Virus genome (UHGV): UHGV-0096010
Direction: 5' to 3' (one strand)
Length of the DNA stretch: 24,017 bases
From: a virus
Shown here one piece after another: positions 4,635 through 13,802 of this stretch; positions within the stretch are counted from its first letter, which is position 1, and the number at the start of each line of letters is the position of its first letter. The notes under the pieces are model-generated. The model saw nothing but the letters and a program-made list of their open reading frames with translations, searched no databases and was not told the origin of the DNA. The translations under genes were made by a program, and so were the position numbers.

Positions 4635-5615
4635 AAATAACGTTCCTGTTAGTGCCAGACAAATAAAAAGCCCCAATGCCGTAAGAGGTTCTGACCAGCA
4701 AAGGGGCTTTAACGTGCGGGCAATTACATAATTGATAAGTTAAACTATAAGAGGATTAAACATATCAGCAAATACACTTTTTAAATATACTTGATGATAT
4801 GCTTAAAGGGTGAATAGATACTCCTGAAAACATGCTCTTAAGAAAACATGCGGAATCAATCAGGAATATCTATTCGGGGCGCGGTGGCTAACCGCTATCT
4901 TTCATGGTGTGGATGCACCAGTCAGATTTTAAGGAATCACTATTCCAATCTACTCACAGATTAAATTTTTAATAAGGATTAACTACACCAACAGTAATCT
5001 ACCGTTTCAGAAAATCGTTTCACAACCAAAGATTATAGATCCGCATTCTATAAAACCCGTTTTGCTATCAATATTTCCAAAGTTTATTGCACCATTCTTA
5101 GCTAAACTCTCTCTACTTGCGGCTAACGCTATGCAGATGATAGTTTTTTGACAACAACTTAATAGATTATTCTGTTACTAACTTCCGTCATTAAATAAGA
5201 GTTTAATGATGTTAGTAAATAGTTATAAAATATAACTATCAGTGTAAGGCTCTTTAATGTTTTCGGACAAAATAAGGAGCTTTAGGATAAGCATAGATGA
5301 AAAATAAGAGCGGGAAGGGCAAGGAGATAACACCTACCCGCTTTTATCAAAAATTAAGCACAATGCCTAACAACATTCATCAACACAACGTAGAAACAAT
5401 CAACAATCAAAGAGGGAGTTATGATTATTCTAAAACTTCTTGATAGATGGAAGGTAATATTTGTTAGAGGTTAATGCCACTCAACCTTTGAGGCTATCAC
5501 CTTCCATATGCAGGGATTTATGACAGTAGAAGGATTAACACCAACTAAAATCTTTTAATCTACCCCTAAAATTATTATATAACAAAATCATCATAAATGC
5601 AAATGATTTTCATTA

Positions 5616-5918: not shown

Positions 5919-6163
5919 TATGCGTATTCTCCTTGTAATGCATCATTAATCATATTCAATACGATGTTAAAAGGTGTCTTGAGCGTCAGCACTTCATCAC
6001 GGTAACGTTCTAATGCTTCGTAGTCTTCTGTTTCTTTTGCCAGCCGGATTAACTCAGCATAGTTTTTTGCATCAGACAGGAGCATCTGAAATAATTGTGT
6101 TTCTTGAATATAGCCAATCATTATTTTTCCTTTTTCGAATATTTTCATTGGGCGCTTATACAT
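5918..6163 (-). CDS. hypothetical protein (81 aa)
   Basis: ORF in same-strand small-gene cluster; no clear SD; start uncertain (ATG at 6163 or 6148). Confidence 0.3.
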   Translation of the reverse strand: MYKRPMKIFEKGKIMIGYIQETQLFQMLLSDAKNYAELIRLAKETEDYEALERYRDEVLTLKTPFNIVLNMINDALQGEYA

Positions 6164-6178
6164 ACGCCCGTCTTTCTA

Positions 6179-6559
6179 TTAGTTAGAACGTTTGTTAGAT
6201 GCGAGAGTGTCGATCAGGTGCTGCATCAGATCTGTTTCTGTAACGCCGCCTACCTGATTGTTGAACGAATTGAAGCCTGTATAGTGACGAAATGAGGTAA
6301 AGCCTAACAATTGCCATTTCTTCAATGTGCCAGGTTCTATAATCGTTGTCTTTCTTGTTCTGGGTTTGAAATACACACCATCACCCATTGATTGAATAAT
6401 TTCTAATTCTTCGTTTGTAAGTGGTGGGCTGTTAGATTCTAAAATGAAGACTATCTCTTCACCTGCTTCTTCATTATTCTTATAAACTTGCTTTCTTACG
6501 TCGTTGAAGGTGTTCCCTTGCTCAATACGTTTTAAGTTGTTCTTTTTCTTTCTTCCCAT
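6179..6559 (-). CDS. hypothetical protein (126 aa)
   Basis: ATG at 6559 preceded by AGAGGGAAA SD; basic N-terminus MGRKKK. Confidence 0.45.
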   Translation of the reverse strand: MGRKKKNNLKRIEQGNTFNDVRKQVYKNNEEAGEEIVFILESNSPPLTNEELEIIQSMGDGVYFKPRTRKTTIIEPGTLKKWQLLGFTSFRHYTGFNSFNNQVGGVTETDLMQHLIDTLASNKRSN

Positions 6560-6693
6560 TTTCCCTCTTTTTATGTGGATTATAAAAACTGAATGCCATA
6601 GTTACGATGAATATTGCTACAAATGCACTTGCCATATGTATTGCCCGATCTGTTGTTACTGATTGTTTGTGATGTTATAAATCATTTATTTCC

Positions 6694-7263
6694 TTAAAAG
6701 GGTAGTGAATCATATATTGTGCTCTCACTTTTGAGATCAATTATCAAAGAGTCAAAATCATTTTCACAAAGATAGATATTCTTTGAATCTAATGCTCGTT
6801 TTACAAAATCTTCTGTTTCTTCGTGCGGTGGTTTCTTCTTATCAAGGGAAAGAAGCCAAGTAAAAATTTCGGGCCGCTCAGGGAACTCTGGCTCTTGTGT
6901 TTCTTCTTCAACGATGATTTCGGAAACATTCAATATTTCATTAGATTCGTCTTCTTTCTCAGAAGGATCAGGTAGTGATGATTCTCCTTTTGGAATATCA
7001 AGCACTCGATAAAGGTTAGAGCTTCCTGGTCGTGCATCTTTTATAATTAATCCCATTTCGAGCAATTTCTTAACCCTTTCTTCTGCTGCTCTTGGTGTTA
7101 TGCCAAAAACATCGCCTATCTTAGCGTAAGAGGGAAATGCACGATCAAACCCTCTCAGATAGCAGTAAAGGTTTTTAGCACTATCTGTAAATTTATGCCC
7201 GTTTACTTGGCTTATTTTTAGAATCCACATAGGAACTTTTACAAATTGTTCTTCATTAATCAT
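6694..7263 (-). CDS. winged-helix/HTH DNA-binding protein, replication-initiator-like
   Basis: preferred ATG at 7263 (MINEEQ...) with AAGGAG SD; N-terminal pattern F.K.P..L......KLY.YL......FPS...I....G.....A...V..L...GLI resembles phage/plasmid Rep-type HTH domains; acidic C-terminal half; family not verified. Confidence 0.4.
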   Translation of the reverse strand: MINEEQFVKVPMWILKISQVNGHKFTDSAKNLYCYLRGFDRAFPSYAKIGDVFGITPRAAEERVKKLLEMGLIIKDARPGSSNLYRVLDIPKGESSLPDPSEKEDESNEILNVSEIIVEEETQEPEFPERPEIFTWLLSLDKKKPPHEETEDFVKRALDSKNIYLCENDFDSLIIDLKSESTIYDSLPF

Positions 7264-7316
7264 TAAAAATCTCCTTGATGTAATCACGCTCTACGGCGCT
7301 ACTATGGTGATAAAAA

Positions 7317-7487
7317 TCACTTGCTTTTGTTTGAGAGTGTTTCAGCCTCTCTTTTCAACATATCAAGAATGTAATCTGTAACAGTGATACGTTTACTTCT
7401 GGCTTCTTTAAACAACACCTGAAATACTTCATCAGGAATATGAAAGCAAGTGCGTGGTTGCCTTTTCTTTTCTGTAGTTTCGCTCAT
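7317..7487 (-). CDS. small DNA-binding protein, ribbon-helix-helix-like
   Basis: preferred ATG at 7487 (MSETTEKK...) with GGAGAA SD; segment RTCFHIPDEVFQVLFKEARSKRITVTDYILDML looks like a beta-strand plus two helices as in CopG/Arc-type repressors. Confidence 0.4.
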   Translation of the reverse strand: MSETTEKKRQPRTCFHIPDEVFQVLFKEARSKRITVTDYILDMLKREAETLSNKSK

Positions 7488-7506
7488 AGTTTTCTCCTTC
7501 TCTTCT

Positions 7507-7707
7507 TTACTCTGTTTCAGATTCTTTTTCAGATCCTTTTTCATTTTTTCTTAATTCATCAATAATTTTTAGTGCATCGTCAAAGCATTTTTCACGCTCT
7601 GGATAACCACAGCGTCGCGCTGTGTTCCTGTTCATCCTTACTTTAAAACGGTTGATCTCACCACGTTTCCAGGCTTCCACAATATCCTGTGGAGTGAAAT
7701 ATTTCAT
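7507..7707 (-). CDS. hypothetical protein (66 aa)
   Basis: ATG at 7707 preceded by strong AGGAGG SD; first gene of the leftward small-gene cluster. Confidence 0.45.
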   Translation of the reverse strand: MKYFTPQDIVEAWKRGEINRFKVRMNRNTARRCGYPEREKCFDDALKIIDELRKNEKGSEKESETE

Positions 7708-7950
7708 TAATTAACCTCCTATTCTATTTAGTTAAAAGAAATAGACACCTTGCAAGCCTTGGGCTTCAAAGTGCGATGCATTGGTTTAATTATTTAAAGG
7801 ATAAGAATGTTTTCCTGCCCCTAATATTACTTTACCACGACTAAAGGCTTTTGTCAACCCCCCAGCCATAAAAATATTGATCATTTTCAGTGTGTTATGA
7901 TTTTTCTTAGCAATTCGTGCTCTTACGAATACTCCAATTCTTCATTATTG

Positions 7951-7980
7951 TCTAAAACGCTCTAAAACGCGTTCTAACGA
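7951..7980. repeat. tandem 10-bp direct repeat (TCTAAAACGC x2 plus degenerate third copy)
   Basis: read directly from sequence. Confidence 0.6.
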
Positions 7981-8550
7981 GGTTTTGATAAAAACAATAC
8001 ATTCCCTTATGTAATGGCTGTTTAGCTCGCCTACGGTTTGATTTAAGCGGTAGAAACTCATCTACTACCTAACATCTTTAAACCATATTTTTCTTTTTTG
8101 TCTGTTTGATGGTTGATCTATAGTTATGCGTTAGCATCCCCAAAGGGGTAACGCTACCCTAATTGCATTCGCAAGAACATTGCACAAGAAATTTATTTTA
8201 GATGATTGATGATCGTTAGATGGTAGTTAGTTAATTATCGTTCTGCGCACAGCGCAAGACTATTTAGCCTTACGCAAGCCGTAGGCTATTTGCACATAGT
8301 AGATTACATATTCGTTGTGAGCGGAAAGCGAACATAGATCTACTAACTAACATTAACAAACAAAAACTATGTGTTATGAGAAGTATCAGTCTAACTGACT
8401 AACACTCTAACTTGTGCAAGGTTCTGGCGAATGCCAATAGATTAAGGGATAGTCGAAGACTCCCTAACGGGTATCCCTATAATTATTCTTTAAAGATAAA
8501 AGAATTTATAAAAGATAATTTAATTGTAGTTTGATAGTTGATCTAATAGG

Positions 8551-8687
8551 TAACAAAATTCTGTAGGGGTGGCTAACAGTTTTCTGTGGGGGTGTCTAAC
8601 ATAATTCTGTTAGGGTTGGGGTAACAGTTTTCTGTTAGGGTGCATATTTCTTTAAAAGTTAAGGATAACAGAATTCTGTGGGGGTAG
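8551..8687. repeat. iteron-like array: five direct repeats of ~21 bp, core TAACA-N3-TTCTGT-N-GGGGT
   Basis: copies at ~8551, 8574, 8597, 8622 and 8666; four are tandem with ~22-25 bp period, the fifth follows an AT-rich gap; non-coding context 0.8-1.3 kb from the Rep-like gene. Confidence 0.6.
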
Positions 8688-9641
8688 CTCACAGTGACCT
8701 ACCGTTACATCCATCACATAACATCTGTGCAATGATCTTCTTATAATCAGTAAAAGTCTTTCTTGCTATCAAAAATTAAACATCTAAAACAAGCTTAAAT
8801 TCAAGATTAATTGATGATTAATCCCTGTGTAATTCCATACTAAAAAATCCAAGAAAAATGGCTTCAAAATGCAATTCTTACTTTCTTCACTTTTGCGTCA
8901 TCATCAGCAAAGCCTTATGTTATGCGGCATATAGCGCATCACTGCAAAATTGTTGCTCAATAAACGTTCTATCATTTGTTGAACAAGTTCTTTCACGTGT
9001 TGAAAATTTATGTTTAAATTTGCTTTCAATCTTTAATGTGCAATCACTATCAACATAAAAATAAAAAACCTTCCATTATATTTCATAGCATACAAAAGTC
9101 AATAGAAGCCCTCTCGTGCTCCTACGTAAAAAATCCACCATTTTTCCCCTGATACATCAACTCAAGGCGTTCTATGTGTTCCTTAGTGCATATTACGATT
9201 ATTATGTTAAATGGATTTTGGCCTATATTTTGACCTGCACCCGCATAAACACTGGTTTCATCGCTTACAGCCCTTGTGAGACGTGGTGCTGTTTCTAGCA
9301 TCTGATCCGACATAAAACCGATCATTCTCGTGTTTAGTGAAAGTTTAGTGAGAGACATTACAGAAAGGCTTTCTGTGTAATGATTTAATAGGTAAAAACG
9401 ATGTTGATTACGCAAGAAAATTCCTTGCTGATATTTGGGGATTCTGGATTTTCCAGATCGGGGGGCGCTGAAAATCGCGTTAAGCACTTCTCGCAATCTA
9501 GCCATAAGGGAAGGGATATAGGTATTTAGATGTATTTATAGCTATTTATTTTTTATTTATCTTTATTTAAAAATAACCTTATAAATCAATAATATACAGA
9601 ACAATCTGTTTATATTTTAATCAATTAAATCAAGTTTAATA

Positions 9642-9674
9642 CCCTTAAATACCCTAAAAATAGCCTTAAATACC
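9642..9674. repeat. two copies of CCTTAAATACCC spaced 21 bp apart in an AT-rich tract
   Basis: read directly from sequence; a partial third copy (TAATACCC) lies just upstream. Confidence 0.45.
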
Positions 9675-9839
9675 CCAATAATTAATTTTAAGGCTTTCCG
9701 TGTTCTCTTCTGCATTATGAAAATGCAAAATAAGGCACAAAACAAGCTCACAGACGCATTAAACACACATCACCTACACATCCCTATACCAAGCAATGAA
9801 AACAGCGTTATAATGCGTCCTGTTGCGTTCTGGAGATTT

Positions 9840-9998: not shown

Positions 9999-10603
9999 CG
10001 TGTGCCTCTGTATTCATATGAAAATTAACAAGTTACATACTACACAGGGAGACTACGCATAAAACACAATACAAGTAAAGATACATTTTCAAGACAATAG
10101 GAGCCATAAAGCGCCTTTGATGGTTATACCAAAAAATAAGCGCCGTAGGCGTATCCACTAAAAAGGGCTTTTTCACAAAAGCTATGAAGTCTTAGCAGTT
10201 CTTCTCTTATCAGGCACCCGTTGTACTCCGGTGGACGAAACCGTGCTAGAGCTTGATTCTTTCCCGATCAAGTTAGGTTTTGAAGAGGTGGGCTTTAATC
10301 CACTATTGCACTTAAAACTCTTCCCATCATTTAGCCTGTTTATCCTCTGCAACGTCTCACGACGTGTAGCATCATTGGACACCGCGCCAGGTGTGGAACA
10401 TCTTGCTAAGAGTTTTGGTAGAAGGTTTAGAGACGGTGGCACGTCTTCCAGCTTCAAAGGAACTTGTTACGAGGTTGAGCCTGGGAACTACTCGCCCATA
10501 CGTGTTACACTACCAAAGCCCATAACAACGTATAGGCGTTTGTAAGTGATAACAGAAGATACAATTTCTTAGAGAAGTTAAGCTAAGTTATTGATTTTCT
10601 TGA

Positions 10604-10649
10604 TGGTGCCGATAATAGGAGTCGAACCTACGACCTTCGCATTACGAAT
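10604..10649 (-). tRNA. 3-prime 46-nt fragment of a tRNA-Thr(CGU)-like gene (anticodon-loop through CCA); integrase attachment-site type repeat, not a complete tRNA
   Basis: minus-strand reading ATTCGTAATGCGAAGGTCGTAGGTTCGACTCCTATTATCGGCACCA shows a T-arm (GTAGG/TTCGACT/CCTAT), acceptor 3-prime strand, discriminator and CCA; sequence upstream of it cannot form the D-arm or 5-prime acceptor strand; matches from memory the 3-prime half of enterobacterial thrW. Confidence 0.6.
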
Positions 10650-11048
10650 TATAAGAATCCGCTTCTAATTCAAAGCATTACCCCATCAACACTGCGCTCA
10701 CACGTCCCACCACATCAAAACATGTAAAGCCTTGCAAGTCATTGCGAGGCCTTATGTGTCTCAGTTTTGTCCCACCTTGTATTACGACTTGCATAGCCAA
10801 TGAAGATAAATGTGACGACAAACGGCGCAGCAGTCTTCTTTTCCTTCATACTTTCCCCACCCAGCATGCATACCTTCTACCATAACTGTAGTGAATGTCT
10901 GTTATGAGCGAAAAGCGGACAGGAACATTCTGGTTAATAGATATCAATGCTAACAAAAAAGCTCCCGATGGAGATTTTGAAACCGCTTCCACATAATGAG
11001 ATAAAAGGATTTATTTCTGGTCATGCCCACACATTGACCACGTCGAAG

Positions 11049-11175: not shown

Positions 11176-13501
<2,326 letters not shown>

Positions 13502-13802
13502 TTTAATTACCTTATATATCCAAACTCTTAATTTTCTCTTTTTTACCATAGGATTAATCCAAAATAAAGACCTTGTTGACTAAACCCTCATGTACAAAAT
13601 GCACACTTACTCAAAAGGATCTGGAGGTAATCTCGACCTTCATGATTTAGTTCCTAGGGATAAGCAGAAATCTAGCACTGGATTAAAATTTAAAAATAAT
13701 AATCAATAGGTTATAATGGTTTTTATTCGCATCCATGGGATCTGCTGCTGCCCGCATGATGTTGGATGCGACGGCGATGGCACGACCTCACCCGGTGAAA
13801 CG

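Follow-up and report, generated by a model that had tools for sequence, protein, structure and literature searches.

A putative replication origin with a matching initiator in an integrative island of Escherichia coli, probably a satellite of phi92-like phages

The 24,017-nucleotide stretch listed as virus genome UHGV-0096010 (the whole of which is called the window hereafter) is Escherichia coli chromosome, and its left 10.6 kb make up most of an integrative island of about 12 kb. The region of this island that carries a row of direct repeats, an AT-rich tract and the gene of a winged-helix protein matched to the repeats was read, with a probability of roughly 0.6, as the replication module (origin and initiator) of the island, which would be a satellite of phi92-like and Phapecoctavirus (Stephanstirmvirinae) lytic phages. 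The array, the tract and the matched protein most likely mark the replication origin of the island, and origin activity itself is what we infer from them. The island is probably a parasite of phi92-like phages. An original prediction, made from the letters of the window, had proposed a theta-type origin with which the element would replicate autonomously as a phage-plasmid, satellite or island.

Repeats and AT-rich tract of the proposed origin

The array consists of five 20-bp units (TAACA-N3-TTCTGT-N-RGGGT), all on the + strand. Copies of the pattern TAACANNNTTCTGTNRGGGT were located at 8551-8570, 8574-8593, 8597-8616, 8622-8641, and 8666-8685, each with 0 mismatches, and the 24-kb window held no other match at up to 2 mismatches. 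As 0.03 copies were expected by chance and none of 100 shuffled sequences reached five, the five direct repeats of the original prediction were confirmed. Each unit contains a palindromic core, ACAGAATTCTGT in the best copies, which the prediction had not described. The spacing from start to start was 23, 23, 25, and 44 bp, corresponding to approximately 2.2 helical turns and then approximately 4.2; the array therefore has the form of iterons, a series of at least three direct repeats, each about 17-30 bp long, with a near-helical spacing. The features of the proposed origin are as follows.

8551-8685, + strand: type-A array, TAACAGAATTCTGTGGGGGT five times, four units close together and one 44 bp apart; by sequence, candidate iterons bound by the winged-helix protein
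8478-8550, no strand: AT-rich tract of 73 bp, 84% AT, ending in TGATCTAATAG; by composition, a candidate DNA-unwinding element
8686-8712, + strand: right flank AGCTCACAGTGACCTACC-GTTACATCC, conserved in all islands by alignment

The AT-rich tract lies directly left of the first repeat unit and abuts it, in the place of an unwinding tract beside initiator-binding repeats. The sequence GATCTAATAG adjoins the first type-A unit in both E. coli and Franconibacter. The right flank is composed of one orphan type-E unit and a type-C half-site, as defined by the repeat types given below.

The leftward operon and its winged-helix protein

Three genes, in the order 66-aa gene, ribbon-helix-helix (RHH) gene, and winged-helix gene, form a leftward operon.

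7507-7707, - strand: protein of 66 amino acids (aa), first gene of the leftward operon; in the list of open reading frames (ORFs) and annotated in RefSeq relatives
7317-7487, - strand: RHH protein, 56 aa, directly upstream of the winged-helix gene in the same operon
6694-7263, - strand: initiator-like winged helix-turn-helix protein, 189 aa

The model of the 189-aa protein showed a winged helix at aa 6-90 (pLDDT about 80-88), in agreement with the fold first proposed; a disordered acidic linker (aa 93-129) connects it to a three-helix domain (aa 130-180), after which comes a floppy tip ending in IYDSLPF. All PHROG matches of this protein were to initiator families, including "O-like" ones. The N-terminal domain is thus initiator-like by profile and fold, and the protein can be placed loosely in the HTH_36/DnaD-NTD-like winged-helix group; profile and fold alone cannot separate it from a transcription factor. 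A sequence search of the PDB returned nothing significant, and neither NCBIfam nor PADLOC gave a match for the winged-helix, RHH, or 66-aa proteins; the last also lacked any family match in Pfam and PHROGs.

RefSeq names the 189-aa protein a LexA family transcriptional regulator, which is probably wrong. Membership of the LexA family was rejected, as LexA_DNA_bind gave an E value of 0.099 and 12.9 bits against a cut-off of 23.7 bits and no S24 peptidase domain was present. The C-terminal half consists of the acidic linker and the three-helix domain.

All intact C-termini examined end, behind acidic residues, in (I/L)PF (YDSLPF, YDSIPF, DDFDIPF, EDFDIPF, EDFDLPF, and, in Franconibacter, FGIPF), with a consensus tip of (D/S/G)(I/L)PF in which P188 and F189 are invariant. 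The tip of E. coli SSB (the protein binding single-stranded DNA), DDDIPF, is a docking peptide for DnaG and many other proteins and serves replication proteins as a hub (PMC5872125). Judged by sequence, mimicry of the host SSB by the initiator tip is an attractive idea. In a scan of the whole phi92 genome, no ORF had an acidic (I/L)PF at its end; the two phi92 ORFs with acidic tails ending in F were the ribonucleotide reductase small subunit and a 136-aa protein, and no SSB was among them.

The RHH assignment of the 56-aa protein was right at the level of fold and has no sequence profile behind it, since Pfam and NCBIfam gave no match. The AlphaFold2 (AF2) single-sequence model (pLDDT 89) contained an extended N-terminus and helices at 19-31 and 36-54, and the top Foldseek matches were Arc, CopG, RHH antitoxins, and the plasmid copy-control protein ORF56 (probability 0.8-0.98, E 0.09-1). 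The modelled order of strand, helix and helix in a protein of this size is that predicted for an RHH protein of about 45-55 residues. The protein is nearly identical across the domain types described below (the same WP_000005468 in L001-L004), and its gene is absent from the type-B relatives L005 and L009.

The type of winged helix predicts the type of repeat

The loci compared comprised nine annotated E. coli loci, 23 from IMG/VR, and three from GTDB. They carry five unrelated-looking N-terminal domains (types A-E) and several C-terminal versions, and the array has a fixed position in the backbone, between a conserved AT-rich lead-in on one side and the conserved flank AGCTCACAGTGACCTACCGTTACATCC on the other. 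The repeats found with each type of domain were as follows.

Domain type A: core ACAGAATTCTGT, 5 copies
Domain type B: core GGAAnTCATTTCC, 3-4 copies
Domain type C: core GTAACGnATCGTTAC, 4-5 copies
Domain type D: core TATCAnnnnTGATA, 4-6 copies
Domain type E: core TCACAGTGA within AGCTCACAGTGACCTACCCCCT, 2-5 copies

Whichever C-terminal domain and whichever 1.1 kb of intervening sequence was present, the majority array type was that of the domain in 27 of 29 informative loci, a figure that overstates the independent events because the loci are related; approximately ten independent combinations of domain, C-terminus, and backbone were counted. Further matched loci were L043 and L044 (both type C) and L045 of Franconibacter (type A, with a different C-terminal domain). 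The repeats of the window were accordingly kept in homologues having the same DNA-binding domain, but were replaced by another array where the domain differs, so that the conservation expected of them holds within a type.

This match does not reflect linkage within one block, as seen from the varied C-termini, the mosaic of L003, L005, and L006, and the distance of approximately 1.3 kb between gene and array. In E. coli, type A came with either of two C-terminal versions; Franconibacter helveticus had a third and kept the 4+1 layout of type-A units and the GATCTAATAG lead-in. The 4+1 layout also occurred in other relatives with the same domain. In L003 (type A), L005 (type B), and L006 (type C), the right flanks were 97-98% identical and the C-terminal coding sequences 89-99% identical, whereas the domain-coding and array segments were only 61-65% identical. 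These sequences are most simply read as the outcome of selection for a matching pair, and the co-variation, in which domain type predicts repeat type as expected of a functional pair, was taken as strong, if indirect, evidence for binding of the repeats by the winged helix. At this level, the specificity of the putative initiator matches its repeats.

An AT-rich tract precedes every array type and, in compound loci, each array. Compound loci (L033, L030, and L021; right of the conserved block) contain several cassettes of AT-rich tract plus array in series, with the cognate one first; in L033 the series was E x5, B x4, D x2, A x2, and C x3, and those of L030 and L021 were similar. Together with the orphan E unit and C half-site in the flank of the window, the compound cassettes suggest repeated cassette exchange. 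An AT-rich partner of this kind is needed by an origin, not by an operator.

Phage nucleases built from the DNA-binding domains of the islands

The first 105 codons of the winged-helix gene and 41 bp upstream (6950-7304; 355 bp) were 98.9% identical to Phapecoctavirus Mt1B1_P17. The gene concerned in that phage (L010:5328-6314) encodes a 328-aa protein in which domain A (99% identical) is followed by domain B (88%) and a C-terminal endonuclease domain. Phage BI-EHEC (L011) has the same layout (domain A 93% identical; domain B 88-90% in the two phages), and the Justusliebigvirus phage inny (L042:238-1341) joins domain C (87%) and domain B (89%) to the same nuclease in a protein of 367 aa. The nuclease domain matched the endonuclease family phrog_681 (E 2e-18); in Pfam, MUG113 (21.2 bits) and T5orf172 (E 0.037) were both below their cut-offs, and the annotations of its homologues in other phages read GIY-YIG or homing endonuclease. 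The full-length nuclease gene was present in about six of 50,697 phage records.

A phage nuclease of this composition has a precedent in ICP1, whose Odn, a T5orf172 nuclease with a RepA-like domain, was shown experimentally to cut the origin of the satellite PLE at semi-palindromic iterons, and PLEs evade Odn through changes of the iterons and exchange of the replication module (PMC8263062). By sequence, the genes found here would likewise join a GIY-YIG/T5orf172 nuclease to the DNA-binding domain of a satellite initiator, acquired as a copy, and by analogy they appear to be candidate anti-satellite, "origin-directed" nucleases. If the analogy with Odn holds, the island arrays are sites that a phage gains by destroying, and an origin fits this best.

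The array gave no blastn match among the 50,697 phage records, and a scan of the whole phi92 genome revealed no cluster of any repeat type from A to E. Among 2.9 million IMG/VR contigs, type-A arrays were found in eight contigs of 19-58 kb, none of which has the 150-kb size of a phage genome; in those of the eight that were examined, the arrays lay within islands of this kind.

The island as a probable satellite

In strain RMDEC364 the island extends from a tyrosine integrase gene to a tRNA-Thr gene beside proA (L001, with integrase and tRNA-Thr as the flanks), and its end within the window is a partial tRNA-Thr at approximately 10600-10650. Over 6100-9600, identity was 99.5% for the island-bearing strains CFSAN029787 and RMDEC364. 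Related islands occupy other tRNA genes, namely Leu, Gly, and Ser. A tRNA and tmRNA gene scan of the window found none. The non-coding region of the island was present, in parts, in 746 of 5426 complete E. coli genomes (about 14%), and 888 of 889 matching places in these genomes were chromosomal, which is not the distribution of an extrachromosomal replicon. PLSDB yielded two partial matches, one of them a 4.9-Mb record. On this distribution, identity as a plasmid or phage-plasmid was rejected.

Among the genes of the island are those for a Dit-like tail protein (53% identity to Phapecoctavirus proteins), a tape-measure-like protein, and a weakly capsid-like protein, along with several small ORFs. 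The capsid-like protein (343 aa) had no tblastn match in phages. In addition, the island contains a short sequence in common with phi92.

9457-9502, + strand: phi92-like 46-mer, 43 of 46 positions matching phi92 318-363

The 46-mer spans the inner end of the 343-bp left direct terminal repeat (DTR) of phi92, and its exact 23-mer core was found in ten island loci representing several initiator types. The sequence is a candidate packaging signal that may have been borrowed from the helper phage. Integrase and tRNA-Thr, the Dit-like protein, the DTR-boundary 46-mer, and the DNA-binding domains common with phage genes together show the composition of a satellite, that is, an integrase with an attachment site, helper-derived sequences, and few or no replisome and virion genes.

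Of the options originally offered, the satellite is thus the best, supported by an integrase island at tRNA genes, tail-gene homologues, the phi92 terminal-repeat boundary, and domains common with Stephanstirmvirinae phages. Autonomy in the plasmid sense fits poorly with an element that is chromosomal in all but one of the 889 places, and a theta-type plasmid or phage-plasmid is further contradicted by the lack of helicase, primase, and loader genes and of DnaA and integration host factor (IHF) sites. A literature search found no described satellite of phi92, Phapecoctavirus, or Stephanstirmvirinae phages, which is not proof that none exists, and no paper on this island family.

A scan of GTDB species representatives yielded only three loci; since the scan was word-based and could miss distant relatives, the island family looks narrow or its distant members were missed. 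One of the loci, in Franconibacter helveticus LMG 23732 (L045, NZ_AWFX01000007.1), places a related module outside Escherichia. It comprises the RHH gene, a type-A winged helix 87% identical to that of the window with another C-terminal domain ending in GIPF, and a 4+1 type-A array with a GATC-rich AT sequence ahead of it. The IMG/VR locus L027 was dropped as a chance 21-mer match unrelated to the island.

Right of the non-coding region, most relatives carry a gene for a 183-aa serine recombinase (Pfam Resolvase, E 1e-38), located at L003:4016-4567 and in the same position in L002 and L004-L009. The window and L001 are without it, and in the window it is missing at approximately 9120-9520. phi92 also encodes a resolvase/invertase, gp053. 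The recombinase could have a function in the resolution of multimers or concatemers.

Evidence against a replication module and alternative functions

Several results weigh against a replication module. The 189-aa protein had no Pfam match to RepA_N, Rep_3, or Phage_rep_O, and HTH_36 reached 20 bits against a cut-off of 25 bits; the matches to initiator families came from PHROGs and not from these Pfam families. Between 7700 and 10000, neither a DnaA box (TTATCCACA at up to 1 mismatch, or TTWTNCACA) nor an IHF consensus was found, so that the host-factor sites that are common, if not universal, in iteron origins are lacking. No helicase, primase, or loader was recognizable among the island genes with Pfam, PHROGs, and NCBIfam profiles. 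The likeness of the tip to SSB amounts to 3-7 residues, the loci behind the co-variation are related, as stated above, and L033 and L030 contain mixed arrays. Finally, palindromic sites 23 bp apart fit an operator array as well.

The winged-helix protein might be a repressor or activator on palindromic operators, and would then control the recombinase gene of most relatives or else a promoter or RNA running rightward. The fold would suit such a role, public annotations read "transcriptional regulator", and a repressor and its operator would likewise co-vary. Phage operator rows such as lambda OR consist of palindromic units whose spacing resembles the 23 bp seen here, and at 8718-8747, immediately right of the array, there are promoter-like hexamers. 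That promoter-like site, however, is partly deleted in relatives, and the array is approximately 700 bp from the promoter-like site of the operon. The arrays move with the AT-rich tract as a cassette, the PHROG matches are solely to initiator families, the LexA profile stayed at E 0.099 with no S24 peptidase domain, and an acidic linker and an SSB-like tip are not features of a regulator. Regulation by operators is considered unlikely.

Redirected packaging is common among satellites, and in lambda the winged-helix protein Nu1 binds repeated R sites. If the 189-aa protein were a small terminase subunit of the Nu1 kind, it would bind pac- or cosB-like repeats and pass island DNA to the helper terminase; the boundary of the helper terminal repeat lies about 800 bp to the right (9457-9502), and a nuclease aimed at a pac site would also be sensible for a phage. 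Yet no terminase small subunit profile matched in Pfam, PHROGs, or NCBIfam, where the matches obtained were replication initiators. Such a role would not account for the SSB-like tip or the AT-rich tract, and the DTR-like sequence is apart from the array and absent in many array-bearing relatives. A packaging role has a low probability.

The remaining possibility, partition, in which the RHH or winged-helix protein would bind the repeats as a centromere in the manner of plasmid parC/parH, is considered very unlikely: plasmid centromeres typically consist of direct-repeat arrays to which small RHH or HTH proteins bind and an RHH gene is present, but Pfam, PHROGs, and NCBIfam revealed no ParA, ParM, or TubZ-type NTPase on the island, 888 of the 889 places of the element are chromosomal, and the repeat type tracks the winged-helix domain and not the RHH protein, which is near-constant across types and missing in type-B islands.

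Proposed mechanism and likeness to known systems

As a replication module, the region might work as follows. Dimers of the 189-aa protein would bind the five semi-palindromic repeats through the N-terminal winged helix, occupying four adjacent units and the fifth 44 bp away, and several loaded dimers would strain or open the 73-bp AT-rich tract at 8478-8550. The conserved C-terminal helical domain and the floppy tip would then recruit replication proteins, for which the island has no genes of its own. By analogy with CopG and RepB, the RHH protein probably regulates the operon. Replication would be expected after helper infection and not as plasmid-like maintenance; the lack of DnaA boxes and of replisome genes and the chromosomal site argue for replication triggered by a helper, as in PLE, rather than plasmid-like autonomy.

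The closest parallel is the pair of PLE and ICP1 of Vibrio cholerae (PMC8263062), in which an integrative satellite of a lytic myophage has a non-coding origin of semi-palindromic repeats. PLE likewise has one small initiator and no replisome genes of its own, initiator and origin modules are exchanged between elements, and the phage carries a T5orf172/GIY-YIG nuclease with a DNA-binding domain copying the satellite initiator. The island, which is known from sequence alone, differs in several respects. Its initiator has no Pfam match to RepA_N and ends in an SSB-like PF tip, unlike the RepA of PLE, and its array has five 20-bp units where the PLE origin has three of about 30 bp. The phage nucleases described here contain two tandem initiator-type domains, with up to 99% protein identity and 98.9% DNA identity to island domains, whereas Odn is 42% identical to RepA.

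Lambda O binds palindromic iterons beside an AT-rich tract as a dimer through its winged-helix N-terminus, and its specificity is swapped as a module. The island resembles it in the winged helix, the palindromic iteron row, the AT-rich tract, the modular specificity, and the "O-like" PHROG families matched. The iterons of ori-lambda, however, lie inside the O gene, whereas the island array is 1.3 kb from its gene, and the island has no P-like loader. Phage_rep_O (PF04492) was unmatched by the window protein and gave E 0.014, below the cut-off, for the type-B domain of the phage protein. With respect to RepA_N (PF06970; the RepA proteins of PLE and of pSK41-type plasmids) and the DnaD N-terminal domain, the island protein shows no membership at the sequence level, is much shorter, and has an unrelated C-terminal domain.

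The small RHH gene immediately upstream of the initiator gene in one operon recalls the copG-repB operon of pMV158-type plasmids. RepB, in contrast, is a rolling-circle nuclease, of which the island has nothing, and the regulatory role of the RHH protein is a presumption from this arrangement. As in E. coli SSB, an acidic flexible region ends in (D)(I/L)PF, and DDFDIPF and EDFDIPF are nearly the host sequence; however, the island motif is attached to a winged helix that would bind duplex DNA and not to an OB fold, and the YDSLPF of the window is a weaker variant.

Altogether, the region would be an iteron-type satellite origin, unusual in its minimal initiator, which ends in an SSB-like tip, in the exchange of five specificities, and in the dual-domain phage nucleases that would be aimed at them. 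A more detailed scheme, offered tentatively and considered possible at best, is that the islands of E. coli and Franconibacter form an undescribed family of satellites of phi92-like and Phapecoctavirus lytic phages, and that their initiator consists of a swappable winged helix which the acidic linker connects to a small effector domain, the SSB-imitating tip of which borrows SSB partners such as PriA, DnaG, or the chi subunit. In this scheme the helper phages respond with nucleases into which two initiator domains were captured in tandem (A+B or C+B), and the nucleases drove the islands to retain at least five specificities and even compound origins.

If this reading is true, the island, as a satellite of large lytic coliphages, would be a tractable E. 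coli counterpart of the Vibrio PLE/ICP1 system, carried by about 14% of complete E. coli genomes, and its five naturally swapped initiator/origin pairs would suit the study of how specificity and origin co-evolve. With the dual-specificity phage nucleases, "origin-directed" immunity against satellites would have a second, independent example, and an initiator that recruited the replisome by mimicking the SSB tip would represent a new way of initiating replication without DnaA. Phage-therapy work makes use of phi92-like and Phapecoctavirus phages, and its efficacy could be affected by resident islands that hijack them.

Other features of the non-coding region

The non-coding character of the 1.4 kb upstream of the operon was upheld: 7708-9121 contains no conserved ORF, none of the approximately 746 E. 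coli genomes that carry it has a feature annotated there, and the unannotated stretch extends to about 9840. Its remaining features are as follows.

7829-7857, - strand: promoter-like site TTGACA-17-TAAAGT with TG before the second hexamer, 10 of 12 matches in a consensus scan, for the leftward operon
7960-8031, + strand: block nearly invariant across all island variants in the alignment of nine loci, overlapping the second TCTAAAACGC copy
8100-8490, no strand: self-complementary region of nested helices, with arms at 8159-8188 and 8411-8440 and inner hairpins, containing CGCAAG three times and GTTAGTTAG/CTAACTAAC

In the promoter-like site of the operon, which is separated from the repeats by approximately 700 bp, TTTGTCAA was invariant in nine aligned loci. 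The tandem repeat predicted at 7951-7980 consists of two exact copies of TCTAAAACGC (7951-7970), but the "third copy" to 7980 is degenerate; the duplication is missing in some aligned relatives. From its sequence, TTGATA-17-TATGTA within the block 7960-8031 may be a rightward promoter-like site. A 21-mer from this block was used to retrieve the 23 further islands from IMG/VR.

The motif clusters noted earlier between 8160 and 8360 are present, with CGCAAG at 8170, 8253, and 8270 and the inverted pair GTAGTTAGT/ACTAACTAAC at 8220-8231 and 8342-8353, and they are parts of the larger nested set of inverted repeats. Folding of 8100-8490 as a single sequence gave z-scores of -4.8 (+ strand) and -5.9 (- strand), and the consensus fold of 13 variants gave a z-score of about -9 on both strands against column shuffles. 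The fold energies were equal on both strands and favored neither. There were three double-compensatory pairs, as well as four wobble-type changes that fitted the + strand only, with the variation coming from just two haplotypes. Rfam had no family match for this region in any variant; at gathering scores the window had none at all and the nine related loci only flanking tRNAs and a TPP riboswitch, and a scan of the non-coding region of the window at a permissive E value gave chance-level matches only. The region may be an RNA running towards the origin (primer or regulator) or a single-strand DNA structure.

In L007-L009, a different, GC-richer structured segment occupies the place of 8100-8490. 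A variable insertion follows GTTTAGCTCGCC (window 8031) in L002, L005, and L007-L009. It starts with tandem 13-bp repeats of GGCTTATTTAAGT, seven in L009 and one to two elsewhere, and GTTTAGCTCGCC is duplicated at both ends of the insertion in L002 and L005. A second AT-rich stretch (9516-9700; 80-87% AT) lies directly right of the phi92-like 46-mer and contains repeats with a period of 10-11 bp, TATAGGTATT-like at 9517-9569 and three to four copies of AATACCCTTA at 9638-9682.

Neighboring genes and sequences

The 613-aa product of 775-2616, named "flotillin family protein" in RefSeq, matched the phage tape-measure family phrog_16051 (E 3e-33), and the RefSeq name looks wrong. Within the island, 4635-5615 (about 980 bp) contains no ORF of at least 60 aa and no RefSeq annotation, and it has short hairpins, for example 4812-4827 with 4860-4875.

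Just outside the island, on the - strand at 11176-13549, are genes for SIR2_2 (ThsA-like by PADLOC), a Ham1-family nucleoside triphosphate pyrophosphatase, and an adenosine deaminase (CARF_ADA-like). This three-gene cluster looks like a defense system, although PADLOC lists no such system, and its position after the partial tRNA-Thr at about 10600-10650 suggests tandem islands at thrW. From about 14.5 kb onwards, the G+C content rises to approximately 47-60%, compared with 34-47% further left.

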